The notes under the pieces were generated by a model. That model saw only the letters and a program-made list of their open reading frames with translations. It had not been told where the DNA came from and ran no database searches. Positions 3,159 to 40,018 of a DNA stretch of 42,514 bases are shown piece after piece. The stretch lies in sequence record OQ921331.1. The stretch is one strand, 5' to 3'. The translations under genes were made by a program, and so were the position numbers. This stretch comes from Escherichia phage vB_EcoP_PAS7. The number at the start of each line of letters is the position of its first letter. Position 1 is the first letter of the stretch.

Positions 3159-3485
3159 ATGAACGCTAAGGCTCAAGCACGTCGTTTCGGTATTTCTGTA
3201 GAAGCAGCTAAAGAGATGGAACGTAACCGTACTGAACTGGTGCAGCTTGCTCAGAAGCCGGAAGGTACTGAAGCACGTAAGGCGCTTAAGAAGTTAATGA
3301 CTCATACTTACAAAGCACAGTCCATTCCCAGCAATGACTTCTCTGATAAAGTATCTCAGCGCGGCAGTAAAGTAGCGGAGTATAAAGAACGCGGCGAACG
3401 CACTTGCCGTCCTAGCAGTAAGACGGATATTAAAGTTAATAGTTACTTTGCATCTAAATCACGTACTCCTAAGGGGATTAAATAA
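3159..3485 (+). CDS. hypothetical early protein (basic)
   Basis: ORF track, 108 aa; AAGGAGATAAAG RBS. Confidence 0.5.
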   Translation: MNAKAQARRFGISVEAAKEMERNRTELVQLAQKPEGTEARKALKKLMTHTYKAQSIPSNDFSDKVSQRGSKVAEYKERGERTCRPSSKTDIKVNSYFASKSRTPKGIK

Positions 3486-3589
3486 TGGACCTTAATACGG
3501 CTTGGCAGATGGTAATGTGGCCTGTATGCGTCGTAATAGCAATCATCCTGATAATCGCGACTGAAGTAGAGAAGAGGAACAAGAAATGA
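3485..3589 (+). CDS. small membrane peptide (34 aa)
   Basis: ATG overlaps the upstream stop (TAATG); MDLNTAWQMVMWPVCVVIAIILIIATEVEKRNKK has one TM segment; stop TGA at 3587-3589. Confidence 0.3.
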   Translation: MDLNTAWQMVMWPVCVVIAIILIIATEVEKRNKK

Positions 3590-3759
3590 TTCAAGAGGAT
3601 GATTTTGATACTTGGTATAACATTCACGTAAGGCACCGTGCTCGTGAGGAAGCTACTAGGAGGAAACTAGCAGCGCTTAATCGCGGGCACTCTGAGAAGT
3701 ATGCTAAGAAGTTAGCTTCTGAAACTTACAACGAATACCTGACGAGGAACTTAAAATGA
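3586..3759 (+). CDS. small hypothetical protein (57 aa), paralog of 3756..3917
   Basis: ATGA overlap with neighbours; C-terminus KYAKKLASETYNEYLTRNLK parallels HAKKLAQGIYSEYLKRYTE in the next ORF. Confidence 0.35.
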   Translation: MIQEDDFDTWYNIHVRHRAREEATRRKLAALNRGHSEKYAKKLASETYNEYLTRNLK

Positions 3760-3917
3760 CTGAACGTGAGATGTGGTATGAAGAATATGTTAAAAAACTT
3801 GCCGCCCAAGCTGCCACTGCTGCTTATCTGGTAGAACTTAAGAAACACTCTGAAGCTCACGCTAAGAAATTAGCGCAGGGTATTTACAGCGAATACTTGA
3901 AGAGGTATACAGAATGA
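3756..3917 (+). CDS. small hypothetical protein (53 aa), paralog of 3586..3759
   Basis: ATGA-coupled; manual translation MTEREMWYEEYVKKLAAQAATAAYLVELKKHSEAHAKKLAQGIYSEYLKRYTE. Confidence 0.35.
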   Translation: MTEREMWYEEYVKKLAAQAATAAYLVELKKHSEAHAKKLAQGIYSEYLKRYTE

Positions 3918-4042
3918 CACAGCACCAGAAAGCACAGCAACTAGCTAAGAACTACTACACCTTCCTGATTAACAATGAATGTAACACCTGTTTCGCTTGG
4001 AATGCAGCTATGGCCCTTTTCAAACTGGAGATGCAGAAATGA
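3914..4042 (+). CDS. small hypothetical protein (42 aa)
   Basis: ATGA-coupled; MTQHQKAQQLAKNYYTFLINNECNTCFAWNAAMALFKLEMQK. Confidence 0.3.
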   Translation: MTQHQKAQQLAKNYYTFLINNECNTCFAWNAAMALFKLEMQK

Positions 4043-5480: not shown

Positions 5481-6744
5481 TTTACTACGCGCTTTCTGTG
5501 AACGTAAGGTAATGGATAGGTTGTACGAACAGACGCCTAAGTCCTTGCTAGCACCTGATACGGTAGCGATGATTGGTTGGCTGCAACTGTACTTCGCAAC
5601 TTATCCTGACTCTAACGAAGTTAACTTTGAGATGATGAATACGCTCTTGGATATGCGAGGGACACATCTTCAGAAAGAGCAGCTGGATATTATGAAGCAT
5701 ATGCTTAAGACTATTCAGAACGTCCCTACTGAGCTTGTAGCAGGTACAGTTAAGACACTGAATGAGCTAGCTTACTCTGGCGAGATGGCTGCACTAGTGA
5801 GCAAGTATCAGGCAGGTGATGAAATAGATTTCGTACAGGAAGCTAAAGCACTTGAGCGTAAGTACTCTGGTGTAGTAGCTGCTAATGATTCATTACTTAA
5901 ATGGGAAGATGGAGGTGTAGATGATATTCTCGCGGCTACTGATGAGTCTGGTGGTCTTAAGCTTACTGTGTTCAGTGAGTTGGCTAGAAACATTCGCGGC
6001 TTGCGGGGTGGTGATTGTGTCGCTGTGGCTGCTCCTGTTGACGCTGGTAAAACTTCTCTCCTTGCTGCTGCAGTAGTTAGCTTAGCTGAGCAGATGCATG
6101 AGCAGAAGGAGATTTACGCGGAGCGTCCTATACTGTGGCTGGTAAATGAATCATTAGCCAAGCGCACTGTTCCTCGTATCTATCAGGCAGCTACTGGGCT
6201 GACTCTTCAGCAGATTGTAGAGCAGCATAAAGAAGGTAAGTTCGCTGATAAGTATCTGAAGAAGGTTGGGACGTGGGATAAGATTCGCGTTAAGGATGCG
6301 CACAGTATGAATCTGGGGCAGATTTCAACCTTACTGGAGGAAATGAAACCTGCTGTTCTAGTAGTAGATATGGTGAGTGGTATCAAGGGCGCGAATGCTG
6401 ACTCAGAACATCAGGCACTGGAGCGTACTTGGCAGGAACTGCGCATCTTAGGCTGTGAGCATGACTGTATTATCATTGGTAGTATGCAGCTATCGGCAGA
6501 AGGTTACGATATGCTCTATCCCCCACTGACTGCTATGAAGCAATCACGCATCGGAGTACAGGGTGCATTAGACCTTTGTATTATGATGGGAAGATTGAAT
6601 GTGAATGATAAGCCGGACATGGCTAACATTCGCGGAATCTCTACCCCAAAATCAAAATTAACTAAGTCCGGCTGTCAGAGCTATGTTCAATTTCAGGTTG
6701 AATTTGACGGAGGACGTTGTCAGTTTAAGGAGGGTACATTATGA
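5470..6744 (+). CDS. replicative DNA helicase (DnaB/T7 gp4-like)
   Basis: Walker A AAPVDAGKTSLL and Walker B-like LVVDMV; ORF track start 5458 is TTG, the ATG at 5470 has a GGAG RBS. Confidence 0.7.
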   Translation: MDFNLLRAFCERKVMDRLYEQTPKSLLAPDTVAMIGWLQLYFATYPDSNEVNFEMMNTLLDMRGTHLQKEQLDIMKHMLKTIQNVPTELVAGTVKTLNELAYSGEMAALVSKYQAGDEIDFVQEAKALERKYSGVVAANDSLLKWEDGGVDDILAATDESGGLKLTVFSELARNIRGLRGGDCVAVAAPVDAGKTSLLAAAVVSLAEQMHEQKEIYAERPILWLVNESLAKRTVPRIYQAATGLTLQQIVEQHKEGKFADKYLKKVGTWDKIRVKDAHSMNLGQISTLLEEMKPAVLVVDMVSGIKGANADSEHQALERTWQELRILGCEHDCIIIGSMQLSAEGYDMLYPPLTAMKQSRIGVQGALDLCIMMGRLNVNDKPDMANIRGISTPKSKLTKSGCQSYVQFQVEFDGGRCQFKEGTL

Positions 6745-7166
6745 GCGAATGTATAGAACATAACCAGAAGGGCAACAAAGCTGGTTACGGCAATGGTTAC
6801 TGGAACGGTGAACAGGTTATGCTTCACCGCTTAGCCTATTGCTTTAACAAGCAAATACCTGTAAGTGAAATTAAAGGTAGTGTAGTGATGCACACCTGTG
6901 ATAACCCTCGCTGCATTAACCCAACGCACTTACGCTTGGGTACTCAGGATGAAAACATGAAAGATATGCAAGGCAAGGGAAGGATGAGCCAGGGCAGTAA
7001 GCATTACATATCTAAACTTACTGAGGAGGATGTTAAGTACATACGTGAGAATTATATACCACGGCATCCAAAGTTTGGAGGTAAGGCGCTTGCTGCTAAG
7101 TTTGGTATAAATCCGGCATCCCTGTGTCAAATACGAAAAGGCCTACGCTGGAAATCCGTAAGCTAA
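6741..7166 (+). CDS. HNH endonuclease
   Basis: HNH-type motif HTCDNPRCINPTHLRLGTQDEN; AAGGAGGG RBS; sits between helicase and DNA polymerase. Confidence 0.65.
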   Translation: MSECIEHNQKGNKAGYGNGYWNGEQVMLHRLAYCFNKQIPVSEIKGSVVMHTCDNPRCINPTHLRLGTQDENMKDMQGKGRMSQGSKHYISKLTEEDVKYIRENYIPRHPKFGGKALAAKFGINPASLCQIRKGLRWKSVS

Positions 7167-7218
7167 TAGCTAAGCCGTCTTCTCAGGAGGGCGGCTTGTC
7201 GATTAACTGGGAGGAAGC

Positions 7219-7371
7219 ATGTTAAAGTCAGAAGACATTACAGAGCAGGACTACGAGGTTATCCGTGCGATAGCTAATAACCGTAAGCAGGTTAAACGCT
7301 ACACGCTGGATAGCAGTGAGATGATTGTACGAGCAGCACTTAACAGAGCACGGCGCGAGGGGTGGAAATGA
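7219..7371 (+). CDS. small hypothetical protein (50 aa)
   Basis: GGGAGGAAG RBS, ATG at 7219, stop TGA at 7369-7371 overlapping the DNA polymerase start. Confidence 0.35.
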   Translation: MLKSEDITEQDYEVIRAIANNRKQVKRYTLDSSEMIVRAALNRARREGWK

Positions 7372-8582
7372 GCAGCATACTGATTTGGGATATTGAAACG
7401 CAGAACGTACCTTACTATGGCGGGGTTGCTACACCTTACTGCCCAGATAACTACATTGTGGAATCAGGCTTCAGGATTGATAGAACTAATCCAGATGGTA
7501 CGGTGACGTGCAGTGATGTAGGTAGCGTGCGTTACGAGTCGCGGGAGGAGTTCATCTCAGCACCTAGTAGTCAGTGGTTGCCTATTCAGGACGATACTTG
7601 GTTAATGGTAATGCATAACGCCGCATATGAGATTAGCTGGGCGTTGACGTTTGCTAGGGAAGAGTTTGAAGCATTCCTGAAACGGGGAGGGCGCGTATTC
7701 GATACAATGCAAGGCGAGTACATTGCCTCAGACTTCCAAAACCTTTACCCATCATTAGATGAGACGGCTCCTAAGTACGGCGGCAGCCACAAGGTTGACG
7801 GCGTTAAACTGCTATGGCAGCAGGGCGTGTTAACAGCAGATATTGACCCTGTACTGCTGCATGAGTATCTAACAGGGCCAGAAGGTGATATCGTAAACAC
7901 AGCGTTATGCTTCTACGGGCAGTGTGCAGTGTTCGCTGAGCGTGGGCAGATGCCTATGGTCTGGGAAAGGATGGATAGTGTACTGGCCTTAGCCTACTGC
8001 GAGTTCAACGGTGTGTACGTAGACATGCCTACAGCCAGAGCTAACCAGAAGGAGCAGGAGGACGCTATAGCAGAGCTGAAGCAGACGCTGCAAGGCTTCT
8101 TACCTGAACTGCCTGAGGGATTTGAGTTCAACTGGAACAGCGGTTATCATATGAGTGCGTTGGTGTACGGCGGTACGGTTAAGTACAAGTGCAAGGTCCC
8201 GTATGACCCGCCAAAGTTTGTAAAGTTCGATGCCTACCTGGCCGATGTTAAGGGTACTCAGCAATACATAGATGTTAATGATTGGCAAGATAGCTGGACG
8301 TACAGCCGTGAAGTGTTTAAGTCTGGACGTAATAAAGGTCTGCCCAAAGTTTACAAGGTGGAAAGTTCAGAGCAGTCTATGAAGTGGGGTGAGCGCCTGT
8401 ATAAGTTCGAAGGGCTTGTGCACATCCAAGACCTACCAGCAGTATTGCAAGAGAAGTACGCAGAGCGCGGAGAGTTCCGAGGTGCTCAGACATTGGCAGA
8501 TGGTACACCTGTGTTCAGTACAGGGACTGATGCTATGAAAGAACTGGCTAACTATTTTATTGGGATGGAAGAGAATGAGTAA
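7368..8582 (+). CDS. DNA polymerase part I (3'-5' exonuclease domain and N-terminal polymerase region)
   Basis: Exo I motif IWDIETQN near the N-terminus; ends at TAA 8580-8582, overlapping the start of part II in another frame. Confidence 0.7.
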   Translation: MSSILIWDIETQNVPYYGGVATPYCPDNYIVESGFRIDRTNPDGTVTCSDVGSVRYESREEFISAPSSQWLPIQDDTWLMVMHNAAYEISWALTFAREEFEAFLKRGGRVFDTMQGEYIASDFQNLYPSLDETAPKYGGSHKVDGVKLLWQQGVLTADIDPVLLHEYLTGPEGDIVNTALCFYGQCAVFAERGQMPMVWERMDSVLALAYCEFNGVYVDMPTARANQKEQEDAIAELKQTLQGFLPELPEGFEFNWNSGYHMSALVYGGTVKYKCKVPYDPPKFVKFDAYLADVKGTQQYIDVNDWQDSWTYSREVFKSGRNKGLPKVYKVESSEQSMKWGERLYKFEGLVHIQDLPAVLQEKYAERGEFRGAQTLADGTPVFSTGTDAMKELANYFIGMEENE

Positions 8583-9729
8583 CAAGGCTTCGGAGTTCTT
8601 CAAGGCATACAGTGAGATGACCTTGCGTGAGAAAGATTTAGGCTTCTATGAGAAGAAGGAATTTAACAAGGACGGTAGCCTGCGTAAGACTACAGGTATG
8701 CTTCCGTATGTAATCCCTCAGAAGGAAGACGGCAGCGGCATCATTCATCACAGATTGAATCACTGCTCAACCACGACCGGACGACTATCAGCATCTAACC
8801 CGAATATGCAGCAGTTGCCGCGTGAATCTAAGGTTAAGCAGATTCTGCGTAGTCGTTACGGTGAGCAAGGTATGATTGCTCAGTGTGACTACTCAGCTAT
8901 GGAAGTTGTAATGGGCTGTGTAATAACAGGTGATAAGAAACTACTATCCTTGCTTGAAGCTGGTACAGATATGCACTGCTATCGTTTAGCATTCCAAGAG
9001 GGTATGCCTTATGAAGAAGTCTACGAGCTTTGCCATAACCCGGATGCACCTAACCATAAGGAATGGAAGAAGAAACGAACAGCAATCAAAACCTTCAGCT
9101 TCGCAGCGCAGTATGGAGCTTCCGCTAAAGGACTGGCGTTCGCCTCTGGTGCCAGCCTGAAGGACGCTGAGAAGTTCTTAGCTAACGAAGAAGCCCTGTT
9201 CCCTGAATCTATTAAGTACCGTGATGTAATTGCAGCAGAGGTAAATCGTACAGCACTGTTAGAGCCTATGCGCCGCGAGCAATCAGATGATGGTAGCTGG
9301 CGTATCTATCGGGAAGGCTATTTTACTGCTCCTTGTGGTACTCGTTACCGCTTCCGTCAGAAACCTGTATGGCGTGAAGGTAAGCAGGTCATGGACTTTA
9401 AACCTACAGAGATGGCTAACTATCCATTTCAAGGTTCAGGTTCTCTGCTTATGCTTATTGCGATGGGTATGATTCTGCGCGCAGGATTAGCTACGGATTG
9501 GGGTAACGGTAGTTGGTGCTTGTTAGCAACTGTACATGACTCCGTATATTGTGACTGTAAAGATGAGTCAACGGCGAGGGAAGTAGGTCAATTAATTAAG
9601 AAATGTATGGAAGGTGCAAGAGATAGAATGCTGCAACTTTGGCCTAACTTCGGAATACTACAGGACGTTAAATTCCCTGCCGAGTGTGGTATTGGTAAAT
9701 CATTTAAAGAGGAGCAGGTACTTGGCTAA
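8575..9729 (+). CDS. DNA polymerase part II (family A palm/fingers)
   Basis: Motif A CDYSAMEVV, motif B RTAIKTFSFAAQYGAS, motif C VHDSVYCD. ATG at 8575 is in the frame of ORF track 8560..9729. Confidence 0.7.
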   Translation: MSNKASEFFKAYSEMTLREKDLGFYEKKEFNKDGSLRKTTGMLPYVIPQKEDGSGIIHHRLNHCSTTTGRLSASNPNMQQLPRESKVKQILRSRYGEQGMIAQCDYSAMEVVMGCVITGDKKLLSLLEAGTDMHCYRLAFQEGMPYEEVYELCHNPDAPNHKEWKKKRTAIKTFSFAAQYGASAKGLAFASGASLKDAEKFLANEEALFPESIKYRDVIAAEVNRTALLEPMRREQSDDGSWRIYREGYFTAPCGTRYRFRQKPVWREGKQVMDFKPTEMANYPFQGSGSLLMLIAMGMILRAGLATDWGNGSWCLLATVHDSVYCDCKDESTAREVGQLIKKCMEGARDRMLQLWPNFGILQDVKFPAECGIGKSFKEEQVLG

Positions 9730-10225
9730 AGTTACTAAACCTATACCGGAAGGCATACGGGAATTTTGGAGATATGATTCTGAGAGTGGGAAATTAATAT
9801 GCATACAAAACATAAAGCGCACTAAGTACAGTGAAGGCATAGTTGCAGCTAGTCTTACAACTACAGGTAATTATCTAAAGCTGAATTTTAATAAGGTAAG
9901 CTACCTTCAGCATCGGGTAGCATGGTTCCTTTACTATAATGAACAACCTCCTGAAGTTATAGACCACAAGGACGGTAACGGCCTTAACAACGCTATAAAC
10001 AACCTGCGTGCTGCAGATGATGGTTGTAACATGATGGACATTACTGTAACTGCTAAATCCACTACAGGTATTAAAGGTGTCATGCCTGTACGGGGAGGTA
10101 AGCTGTTCCGTGCCGAAGTATGTGTAGATGGTAAGCGCTACCAGAAGCACAGCAAGGACGTAGCTTTCTTAGAGCAGTGGGTACAGGCTAAGCGTAAAGA
10201 ATTACACGGAGAGTTTTATAAATAG
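9722..10225 (+). CDS. HNH-AP2 homing endonuclease (paralog 1 of 3)
   Basis: HNH motif EVIDHKDGNGLNNAINNLRA followed by an AP2-like region; no in-frame ATG, likely TTG start at 9722 with an AAGAGGAG RBS; paralogous to 12767..13219 and 19681..20157. Confidence 0.6.
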   Translation: MAKVTKPIPEGIREFWRYDSESGKLICIQNIKRTKYSEGIVAASLTTTGNYLKLNFNKVSYLQHRVAWFLYYNEQPPEVIDHKDGNGLNNAINNLRAADDGCNMMDITVTAKSTTGIKGVMPVRGGKLFRAEVCVDGKRYQKHSKDVAFLEQWVQAKRKELHGEFYK

Positions 10226-10866: not shown

Positions 10867-11612
10867 ATGAACTATTTAGATATCTGCGAGAAGTACAATG
10901 TAGGAAGCCTGCGCGACGCTAACCTGCGCGACGCTGACCTGTACGGCGCTAACCTGTACGGCGCTGACCTGCGCGACGCTAACCTGTACGGCGCTAACCT
11001 GTGCGGCGCTGACCTGCGCGACGCTAACCTGTACGGCGCTAACCTGTGCGGCGCTGACCTGCGCGGCGCTAACCTGCGCGGCGCTAACCTGCGCGGCGCT
11101 AACCTGTACGGCGCTAACCTGCGCGGCGCTAACCTGCGCCTAACCTGCGCGGCGCTAACCTGTACGGCGCTAACCTGCGCGGCGCTAACCTGCGCGGCGC
11201 TAACCTGTGCGGCGCTAACCTGTGCGGCGCTAACCTGCGCGGCGCTAACCTGCGCGGCGCTAACCTGTACGGCGCTAACCTGCGCGACGCTAACCTGCGC
11301 GACGCTGACCTGTGCGGCGCTGACCTGCGCGACGCTGACCTGTGCGGCGCTAACCTGCGCGGCGCTGACCTGCATGGGACTGACTTGATTGTAATTTATG
11401 GGGAACAGTACTTTATTAGCCTATACAAGGGAACAGTACGCGCAGGTTGTCAGTCGCATACGATAGCGGAGTGGCGAAGTTTTAGTAAGGAAGAAGTAAT
11501 TGCTATGGACGGGCGTAATTCTCTTAAATACTACCCACGTCTTTTAGACATCATTGATTTTTACTGTGGTAAGGGCGAGCGTCCTGATTGGGTAATGAAA
11601 ATAAACAAGTAA
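10867..11612 (+). pseudogene. pentapeptide-repeat protein, frame disrupted at about 11139-11141 by a 4-nt indel in the tandem-repeat region
   Basis: Frame 1 reads A(D/N)LXX pentapeptide repeats ([15 protein letters not shown]...) up to 11139. The repeat unit AACCTGCGCGGCGCT is shortened to AACCTGCGCCT at 11131-11141; the repeat frame continues in another frame to the stop at 11612, with a non-repeat C-terminal domain (ORF track 11385..11612). Confidence 0.55.
10921..11370. repeat. tandem 15-bp repeat array (about 30 units, consensus AACCTGCGCGGCGCT)
   Basis: Direct reading: 15-nt units with variants GAC/AAC, TAC/TGC/CGC and GGC/GAC; one truncated unit near 11131-11141. Confidence 0.9.
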
Positions 11613-38685: not shown

Positions 38686-38931
38686 ATGACTAGGTACGGA
38701 GCAGGTGCACACACTTTTCGATTTGGGAGTGGTGCACGGGACAGGATTGTAGTACCAGATGCAGGTACTACTGTAACGGTAGAGTACTGGTCTGGTACAG
38801 AGTGGGTTATGGACGTAGATTCACCAATTGACTCTCCAGCTACACTTTATACGCGGCTTGTACGTGTCCGCTTAACTGCGGATGGCGGCTTCTCCTTTGA
38901 TGTAGTGGAGGCTATTGATGAGTCTAATTAA
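38686..38931 (+). CDS. hypothetical protein
   Basis: ORF track, 81 aa; overlaps the start of the collagen-like gene. Confidence 0.4.
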
Positions 38932-40018
38932 TCAGCGCCGTCGTATCTCTAAGGGTGGCAATACCGGCGGTGGTGGCGGTACTGGGCCACAAGGACCTGT
39001 AGGGGAGCAAGGCCCTGTAGGGCCTATGGGTCCGGCAGGTGCAGATGGCCCAGTAGGTCCAGTAGGTCCAGTCGGTCCACAAGGTCCTCAAGGCCCAGCT
39101 GGGCCTCAGGGTCCGCAAGGTCTGCAAGGTCCTGAAGGTGTTCAAGGAGCTAAGGGAGATAAGGGCGATACTGGTCCAGCGGGGCCAGCGGGTCTCAACT
39201 TCCGTGCTGCTTGGGTTCCGGGCTTGACCTATGCTTTACAGGATTCAGTAGCCTACAATGGTAGTACTTGGTTTGCTAATTCGGCTATTGAGGCAGACGT
39301 AACGCCCGGTACTGATCCTCGTTGGGTGCTGCTTGCTATGCAGGGTACTAAGGGGGATACCGGACCTACAGGTCCACAGGGGCCTCGCGGAGTGCAAGGC
39401 GTGCCCGGAGACGTAGGCCCTCAGGGTCCGCAGGGTATAGCAGGCCCGCAGGGTATTCGCGGTCCTCAAGGTGATACCGGCGAGCAAGGTCCCGCAGGGC
39501 CACAGGGCGCTAGAGGTATACAGGGAGTTAAAGGCGATAAAGGCGACAAGGGTGATAAAGGGGATACAGGCGCTACTGGACCCCAAGGACCCGCAGGTCA
39601 AAATAATACCAATAATCCAGTATATACTACACAACTTGCAGTATCTACTAGCTATTCGGCAATAGCTATTCCTAATAACCCCGGAGTATCCTTAACGGTT
39701 AGACGTGTCAGCAATAATATTGAGTATTCATTTACTGGTAACTCCATTGCGGGTAGGTACTTCGACGTAGAATTAGTTAACTTCCCCTCAGCGGACGTAG
39801 TCAAAAGGTATCAATCTAACCATACAATAGCAGGTACTAGCCGCTATGTAGTAGGCGACCCCGCAGGCTACACTGGTACAGGATACAAGAAGATTCAAAT
39901 TACTGCAAGGGATTGGGGAGATAAGAATATTATTATCATAGACCTGTTCCACCTACAACGAGCTGGGGATGCTAACTTCAACATCGCCATTAGGATTGAG
40001 ACCTTTAAACTTCCTTAA
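38918..40018 (+). CDS. collagen-like (Gly-X-Y repeat) protein with C-terminal globular domain, possible fiber or receptor-binding protein
   Basis: Two G-X-Y blocks ([23 protein letters not shown]... and [19 protein letters not shown]...[13 protein letters not shown]); ATG at 38918 with a GGAGG RBS. Confidence 0.6.

Follow-up and report, generated by a model that had tools for sequence, protein, structure and literature searches.

The DNA polymerase of Escherichia phage vB_EcoP_PAS7 (PAS7) was investigated in the complete 42,514-bp genome (GenBank OQ921331.1), hereafter the window. PAS7 is a plaque-forming phage of the proposed genus Cepavirus, Slopekvirinae (PMC11522302), and its polymerase and HNH endonuclease genes go unmentioned in the paper describing it (PMC11522302). 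No single polypeptide with both the exonuclease-type and polymerase domains was found in PAS7; the enzyme is encoded by two overlapping open reading frames (ORFs) in different frames, with the coordinates, frames and overlap given in the original prediction. Part I (7368-8582), which is 100% identical to the PAS7 protein annotated as 'DNA-directed DNA polymerase', starts with ATG, although translation might alternatively begin at an in-frame GTG (7362). Its 404 residues comprise an exonuclease-type N-terminal domain, the start of the polymerase domain and half of the thumb, namely the first half, into which a long beta-hairpin is inserted. Part II (8575-9729), again with an ATG start, is in frame +1 with respect to part I and encodes 384 residues comprising a three-residue head (MSN), thumb helix I, the palm, the fingers and motifs A, B and C. 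The junction reads GAG AAT GAG TAA at the end of part I and ATG AGT AAC at the start of part II, giving the 8-nt stop/start overlap ATGAGTAA (8575-8582), in which the ATG that opens part II is embedded in the final codons and TAA terminator of part I. The last two codons of part I are therefore constrained by the overlapping ATG. The polymerase genes and motifs, and the HNH genes that flank them, are all on the plus strand.

Part II matched the Pfam family DNA_pol_A (PF00476) over residues 52-378 with an E-value of 3e-31 and a score of 109 bits (cutoff 34.3), and sequence matches in the PDB were obtained to the Taq, Klenow and Bst polymerases. Thumb helix I, KASEFFKAYSEMTLREKDL (8584-8640), is followed by motif A, CDYSAMEVV (8884-8910), motif B, RTAIKTFSFAAQYG (9076-9117), and motif C, TVHDSV (9529-9546). 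The Pfam domain and the three motifs, which had been predicted for part II, identify the PAS7 enzyme as a family A polymerase of the Pol I and T7 gp5 type. Part I had no match in Pfam, where no exonuclease model scored, and none in the PDB when its sequence alone was the query; it matched DNA polymerase families in PHROG (phrog_9556, E-value 8e-114; phrog_17). The exonuclease motif ascribed to part I was located as the Exo I-type DxE motif WDIETQN (7386-7406), in which D8 and E10 occupy invariant columns of a 24-sequence alignment. Two further sets of exonuclease-type positions were recognized, HNAAYEISW (7614-7640), with invariant N84 and E88, the E replacing the D of the Exo II motif NxxxF/YD, and YLTGPEGD (7866-7889), with invariant Y167 and D174. 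All catalytic motifs are intact across the two halves, and nine other large ORFs of PAS7 compared with Pfam contained no further DNA polymerase domain.

The fold was deduced from an AlphaFold (AF2) model of P0040, a naturally fused relative of 555 residues that keeps the part I tail and is 75-80% identical, with a predicted local distance difference test (pLDDT) score of 82.6. Foldseek matched the model with a probability of 1.0 to T7 gp5, phiVC8 DpoZ, G20c Pol I and Bst, with low TM-scores of 0.3-0.4, the model being truncated and multi-domain. The motifs together with the fold predict that the N-terminal region of part I is a DEDD-type 3'-5' exonuclease domain. The thumb beta-hairpin follows an NSxxxxxxLVYGG motif and has strands of approximately 22-25 residues (residues 269-324 of the P0040 model; approximately 270-345 of part I, approximately 8175-8400 of the window), and a 23-residue indel within it separates the 404-residue from the 381-residue forms of part I. 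Judging from the model, the hairpin might be a processivity or partner-binding element like the thioredoxin-binding domain of T7 gp5 at another position in the thumb.

Alignment to T7 gp5, as had been proposed, placed the break in a loop of the thumb. The last polymerase-derived helix of part I, TDAMKELAN (8526-8552), is homologous to DDEVLEGV of T7 gp5 and STSEEVLEELA of Pol I. At the junction the P0040 model consists of a helix at 364-376 (TDAMKELADYFIS), a loop at 377-381 (MGKDD) and a second helix at 382-400 (HASGFFKAYNELTLRQKDL), the latter ending on the Pol I KLxSTY motif by profile alignment. In global mode hhalign gave no alignment to T7 gp5; in local mode it anchored only residues 444-502, to T7 gp5 residues 404-458, with part II residue 40 on K404, and the ~40 residues between this segment and the break were therefore matched by motif. 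By motif, GTPVFSTGTDAMKELA corresponds to T7 GAPVVDDEVLEGV and to Pol I GAPSTSEEVLEELA. Taken with the model, these alignments put the break at about residues 373-377 of T7 gp5, in the loop of a helix-loop-helix directly ahead of thumb helix I. The thioredoxin-binding domain of T7 gp5 comprises residues 262-338, and the break lies about 35-40 residues C-terminal to its position. Two antiparallel thumb helices would thereby be placed on separate chains, a plausible interface for non-covalent reassembly. Part I leaves the sequence of fused homologs between KELA and N, the same residue at which an endonuclease gene is inserted in other lineages, and part II starts three residues ahead of KASEFF, the counterpart of RQGFEF in fused proteins. 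The break removes nothing from the polymerase sequence, and the extra residues are the ten of the part I tail and the three of the part II head.

Conservation and translation of the two halves

Homologs with the same split and a conserved overlap had been named in the original prediction as the finding that would make the split a normal family feature, and such homologs were found. In vB_EcoP_P64441, an annotated relative, the polymerase is likewise given as two coding sequences (CDSs) with the 8-nt overlap, and the same split was found in at least eight independent assemblies from different samples. The junction DNA, ...TATTTTATTGGGATNGAANANATGNNTAA..., is kept together with the stop/start overlap in six independent assemblies (the window, L001, L005, L087, L088 and L089), and the pattern ATGNNTAA is conserved in these six and also in L002. 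Homologs of part I were clustered at 90% identity and then sorted by their sequence at the break site. The ten-residue end [NHD]YFIxxExxx, NYFIGMEENE in PAS7, is shared by 54 clusters; 65 are continuous through the site, three have another tail (W..ST..) and one is continuous while keeping the YF tail. The 54 YF-tailed sequences form one clade in a neighbour-joining tree. Their tail, YFIGMEENE at 8553-8579 in PAS7, is clade-specific and not present in fused homologs, and its first three residues are near-invariant. Within the clade, the ratio of nonsynonymous to synonymous substitution rates (dN/dS) ranged from 0.05 to 0.08 in part I and from 0.08 to 0.10 in part II, at dS of 0.7-2.6. Both halves are under strong purifying selection, and since the ratios are low at such values of dS the split has persisted through extensive divergence. 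It is a normal feature of the PAS7 clade and not an anomaly of one genome.

The single continuous sequence that keeps the tail, P0040/L003 (L003 1146-1265, Logan SRR10873863), reads through the junction as …DYFISMGKDD-H-ASGFF… and is 4 nt shorter. It is nested inside the split clade, beside a genome carrying a small ORF between the halves, and in the same contig an HNH ORF interrupts motif B. The read-through probably reflects either a secondary re-fusion or an indel of the assembly. In three further part I sequences (P0051, P0054 and P0056) the first ~200 residues appear by eye to be KP34-like, as in fused lineages, and the C-terminal half and tail PAS7-like, a pattern that suggests recombination within the polymerase gene as expected near homing sites.

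In two relatives, ECO104 4-5-2 (L002) and the metagenomic L091, part I is separated from part II by an ORF of 65/66 residues, which has an 8-nt stop/start overlap with each of them. This small acidic ORF, MMSKFQDIEY...KEYHD (L002 2946-3146; L091 4001-4198), is flanked by direct repeats ATGA(C/G)TAAGTT; those of L002 are imperfect and 9 nt long, and those of L091 match exactly over 11 nt. The 65-residue protein belongs to no Pfam or PHROG family and is represented by two clusters among 5.8 billion proteins. Because a whole ORF lies between them, the halves are translated separately in these genomes, and a fused product is not required. The original suggestion of a two-subunit polymerase with translational coupling fits this inserted gene, the conserved ATGNNTAA overlap and the purifying selection. 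The only T7 gp5-like polymerase of PAS7 is thus, in all likelihood on comparative sequence grounds, a genuine two-subunit enzyme made as two separate polypeptides.

The readings in which the two ORFs do not represent two functional chains account less well for these results. A one-base sequencing or assembly indel, or a decaying polymerase pseudogene, would give the same picture in a single genome, and the pentapeptide-repeat gene elsewhere in PAS7 does look frameshifted in a tandem array; the same junction, however, recurs in the independent assemblies and the 54 protein clusters with dN/dS of 0.05-0.10, in a clade whose member PAS7 forms plaques and, in the Pfam screen of its large ORFs, yielded no other polymerase domain. 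Such an origin is highly improbable, and the conservation of the junction effectively refutes the sequencing error or accidental frameshift that had been considered. A programmed +1 ribosomal frameshift or transcriptional slippage within 8539-8582, producing a single chain of ~90 kDa, could draw on the +1 frame being open for 12 codons upstream of the part II ATG and on the unusual conservation of nucleotides TATTTTATTGGGAT. The frameshift signal sought at the junction was nevertheless not found there: the PAS7 junction has no slippery heptamer, no prfB-like CUU UGA context and no stable RNA structure (fold z = +0.29), the codon next to the stop differs among relatives (GAG, GGC, GAC or GAT), the longest homopolymer is T4, and in L002 and L091 fusion would need two shifts. 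This reading is very unlikely. Joining of the ORFs by splicing of a group I intron or by an intein or split intein is the least credible of all, even though the same gene of relatives has group I introns at two other sites. The 8-nt overlap leaves no intervening sequence, Rfam gave nothing at gathering threshold in PAS7 and nothing at E<=1 within 8300-8900, and for an intein there is no extra in-frame domain, Pfam and PHROG showing polymerase only. As the ORFs overlap and the extra residues amount to tails of 10 and 3 only, an intron or intein is excluded.

Origin of the break

Relatives were collected with an alignment as query, since a single-protein query gave only one locus. When the concatenated protein was compared by tblastn with 84 loci, ~65 relatives from IMG/VR had one uninterrupted ORF at 44-60% identity, and among cultured phages with a homolog 1020 of 1054 records each matched 80% or more of the query at a single location. 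Nearly all among the matches listed are single-piece, including phiKDA1, Buco and many KP34-like Klebsiella phages, and gp19 of phiKMV is a single CDS. The statement in the original prediction that split polymerases are annotated in some phages like phiKMV and KP34 was therefore not borne out by the records listed, and phiKMV was rejected as a split-polymerase relative. Among representatives at 50% identity nearly all relatives are 750-830 residues long, and the only one broken at this site is that of the PAS7 clade itself. The comparison indicates that the fused gene is the ancestral state.

Two other positions in the gene, uninterrupted in PAS7, are occupied by group I introns in relatives. 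At site B, between SNP and NM in TGRLSASNPNMQQLP (8794-8808), the intron carries an HNH ORF; Rfam RF00028 was matched in L002 at 3356-4042 (51 bits), and tblastn alignments break at residues 480/481 in L002, L054 and L084. At site C, between SFA and AQ in motif B (9097-9111), the intron occurs with or without an HNH ORF; RF00028 was matched in L011 at 6712-6920 (70.6 bits) and in L004 at 7093-7694 (31 bits), and tblastn alignments break at residues 581/582. The exons are called by gene finders as separate 'polymerase' proteins of approximately 470-477 or 551-580 residues. Introns at these two sites account for most truncated-looking homologs in databases, and breaks between SNP and N(L/M)Q or between SFA and AQYG in relatives are to be annotated as group I introns and not as true protein splits.

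At the position of the PAS7 break, termed site A, three genomes from different samples and lineages (L004, L085 and L086) carry an HNH_3 gene of 153-155 residues that separates part I from part II. The encoded endonucleases, at 69-76% identity, are orthologs, and their genes overlap both polymerase pieces. Each ORF begins within the codons after ...DAMxx[LI]A[AK], the same residue as the PAS7 break, such that part I ends in an out-of-frame tail (WLTSTSST, WLESTSST or WSEST), and part II (MSLAQFF..., MQNSAQFF...) takes its Shine-Dalgarno sequence, which in L004 and L085 is GGAGGTG, and its GTG or ATG start codon from the 3' end of the homing endonuclease gene (HEG). Because Rfam revealed no intron signal around the site-A HEG, it is free-standing and truly splits the protein. 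In the tree the HEG-bearing P0063 and P0072 have the fused sisters P0055 and P0068, and P0070 branches beside the pair of P0072 and P0068, a scattered distribution of the kind that would be expected of a mobile element. A sliding window for co-conversion gave a modest signal, the HEG being 70-83% identical and its flanks 50-70%. A free-standing HEG at the break was found only in these three genomes, the corresponding position in PAS7 being the 8-nt overlap.

The following sequence of events is proposed. The PAS7 (proposed Cepavirus) clade would have acquired the split a single time, at its base, when a free-standing HNH HEG entered the fused ancestral gene at this residue; the HEG would subsequently have disappeared, with a stop, a start and the tails staying behind. 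The junction is today like any ordinary gene boundary, and in some relatives it has taken in another small gene. In the present-day phage, ribosomes finishing part I could restart on part II at ATGAGTAA, so that the halves would be produced in similar amounts, and these could reassemble non-covalently through the thumb helices and an interface between the exonuclease domain and palm. The model of the fused relative suggests that helices cut apart in a helix-loop-helix loop can still pack together, and the conserved hydrophobic tail of part I (YFIG...) may, by analogy with the NrdA protein of phage Aeh1, aid docking. From the viability of the phage and the selection on both halves we infer that the fragments assemble into an active enzyme.

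Insertion and subsequent loss of a HEG is on balance the favored origin of the break, because the sites coincide at the level of the residue, the ancestral gene was fused and the locus generally carries a load of HEGs and introns. The original proposal of a footprint left by a lost insertion thus holds by comparison as far as a homing endonuclease is concerned, with three lineages having an HNH gene at this residue, and fails for an intein, of which no sign was found. The rather less probable alternative is that the two-subunit enzyme was split without a HEG, by a frameshift or nonsense mutation in a pre-existing insertion of the thumb loop or by insertion of the 65-residue ORF, and that the endonuclease of the other lineages merely prefers the same permissive or conserved site. 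The PAS7 junction, which has no HEG remnant and a tail unlike those derived from HEGs, is consistent with this alternative, as is the existence of a fused variant, shorter by 4 nt, in which the tail is retained; the direct repeats of the small ORF imply in addition that insertion and deletion at the junction occur without a HEG. The fused variant, however, lies deep within the split clade, which argues for a secondary fusion and not an ancestral relic. Moreover, in a protein of 788 residues the break matches to the residue the insertion point of orthologous HEGs in three lineages, and both types of part II start at the same homologous position with similar heads.

Several observations weigh against a two-chain enzyme produced by loss of a HEG. 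The PAS7 junction contains no detectable endonuclease remnant, and its tail, NYFIGMEENE, bears no relation to the tails read out of frame in the HEG-bearing genomes (W[LS]xST...). What speaks for HEG origin at the junction itself consists solely of the coincidence in position and a weak likeness between the N-termini of part II (MSKLAS.FF compared with MSLAQFF). The Shine-Dalgarno sequence ahead of part II, GGAAGAG, is weak; a low level of frameshifted fusion product may be made in genomes with the 8-nt overlap; and the single nested relative fused across the site indicates that the split is not obligatory.

It is conceivable, though doubtful and argued by analogy, that the rebuilt junction is an adaptation with three parts, providing immunity to the HEG, a docking module composed of the YFI tail and the head, and a landing pad for small genes. 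If this were true, the altered sequence would destroy the recognition site of the site-A endonuclease and guard the clade from cleavage and from marker exclusion by co-infecting HEG-bearing phages, the YFI tail and part II head would keep the two chains of the thumb docked, in the manner of the mobE-derived tails of Aeh1 NrdA, and inserted small genes such as the 65-residue ORF of ECO104 and L091 would be expressed stoichiometrically with the replisome. The clade offers a set of natural variants at one thumb loop, which is fused, split with a HEG, split without one, split with a small gene or re-fused. These variants make testable the tolerance of family A polymerases for a broken thumb, the role of tails derived from mobile elements as assembly modules, and whether loss of a HEG with the split kept confers immunity to homing. 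The clade's two CDSs are already annotated as DNA polymerases, and split phage polymerases are already known from other phages; the present results indicate that in Cepavirus-like phages the two CDSs annotated as 'DNA-directed DNA polymerase' very probably represent subunits of one enzyme and not an error or a pseudogene.

The genes on either side of the polymerase were predicted to encode HNH endonucleases, and both are real. The upstream gene (6741-7166) encodes a free-standing HNH/His-Me-finger endonuclease (PF05551 and PF13392; phrog_6254, E-value 7e-29), overlaps the helicase gene by the 4 nt ATGA and varies in presence among relatives, being missing in L088 and L089. The downstream gene (9722-10225) encodes a free-standing HNH endonuclease (PF13392; phrog_99, E-value 1e-40), which starts with TTG at 9722 and not with ATG, and overlaps the stop of part II (TTGGCTAA). 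It shares a broad PHROG family with the site-A endonuclease, yet by BLASTP the two are only ~27% identical. The flanking HNH genes of PAS7 were rejected as the causative endonuclease on account of this low identity to the site-A HEGs, and also since they are missing from some relatives with the same split. Stop/start overlaps are common in this gene block, namely ATGA between the helicase and HNH genes (6741-6744), ATGA between a small ORF and part I (7368-7371) and TTGGCTAA between part II and the HNH gene (9722-9729). Because such overlaps are the rule here, the junction of part I and part II resembles any other gene boundary of the operon.

Other features of the window and of the records searched were also noted. 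A pentapeptide-repeat gene (10867-11612) looks frameshifted in a tandem array of 31 copies of 15 nt (10908-11373). The ORF at 10867-11388 passes from ANLRG... to LTCAA... repeats, the same DNA read in another frame, and the conserved C-terminal domain is a separate ORF (11385-11612), the counterpart in P64441 being one protein of 193 residues; unlike the polymerase split, this break could be explained by slippage in the repeats or by faulty assembly. An ORF of 367 residues (38915-40018) close to the right end of the genome has strong collagen triple-helix repeats (PF01391, E-value 8e-23). Three records, OR847098.1, OR848392.1 and OR850875.1, labeled 'Listeria phage' or 'Salmonella phage', were identical in identity, coverage and bit score to ECO104 4-5-2 over the region, and the record of ECO104 4-5-2 is flagged UNVERIFIED_ORG. 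The host labels of the three records are probably unreliable, with one phage carried over between samples.

Comparison with known split genes

Family A polymerases encoded in more than one ORF have been found in LUZ24-like phages, where a 'DNA polymerase part II' is annotated (PMC3890496), and in an uncultured lineage of T7-like cyanophages (bioRxiv 10.1101/325100). In LUZ24, unlike PAS7, the pieces are apart with other genes between them, the TGR motif is located at ~250 in gp34, and gp36 comprises only the last ~90 residues. The LUZ24 'part II' was therefore rejected as the same split, the fragmentation being different and without meaningful similarity at the break. T7 gp5 has the same fold as the PAS7 enzyme and a thumb that likewise tolerates large structural change or insertion; it differs in being a single chain, and the thumb insertion of PAS7 follows the NSxxxxxxL motif and is not ahead of it. 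The polymerase genes of PhiI/W31 reportedly contain group I introns with HNH ORFs, as described by Bonocora and Shub in 2004. A group I intron with an HNH ORF, I-PfoP3I, is present in the gene for the DNA polymerase of the T7-like phage Pf-WMP3 (PMC3428280). These introns belong to the same gene family and class of mobile element as those at sites B and C in relatives of PAS7, but they are spliced out and leave the protein intact, whereas the PAS7 break has no intron and yields two proteins.

In the T4-related Aeromonas phages 25 and 44RR the replicative polymerase is encoded, as in PAS7, by two genes, and according to the account available in PMC2988022 of Petrov et al. 2010 the proteins gp43A and gp43B co-purify and are active. 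The same account places a seg homing endonuclease at the gp43 break of phage 25 and describes 44RR as without one (PMC2988022), which raises the question posed by PAS7 of whether a HEG was the cause of the split or entered one that was already there. As described there, gp43 differs from the PAS7 enzyme in belonging to family B and in having another break point, and the 44RR genes are separated by an untranslated intercistronic spacer in place of the 8-nt overlap of PAS7.

In Aeromonas phage Aeh1 the ribonucleotide reductase gene is split by a free-standing HNH endonuclease gene into nrdA-a, mobE and nrdA-b (Friedrich 2007; Crona et al. 2011, PMC3045599), and the mobE-derived tails are essential for activity of the NrdA protein (PMC3045599). 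As in PAS7, an essential replication-related phage gene that is contiguous in relatives is divided between two ORFs where a free-standing HNH homing endonuclease gene inserts, with new C- and N-terminal tails at the break and reassembly expected without splicing. Unlike in Aeh1, the PAS7 break has no endonuclease gene, which was either lost or never there, the HEG-bearing state being found only in L004, L085 and L086; moreover, the PAS7 enzyme is a family A DNA polymerase and not a ribonucleotide reductase, and a role for its tails is suggested by analogy only. The closest parallels to the divided polymerase of PAS7 are the Aeh1 nrdA/mobE arrangement and the gp43A/gp43B split of the T4-like phages.

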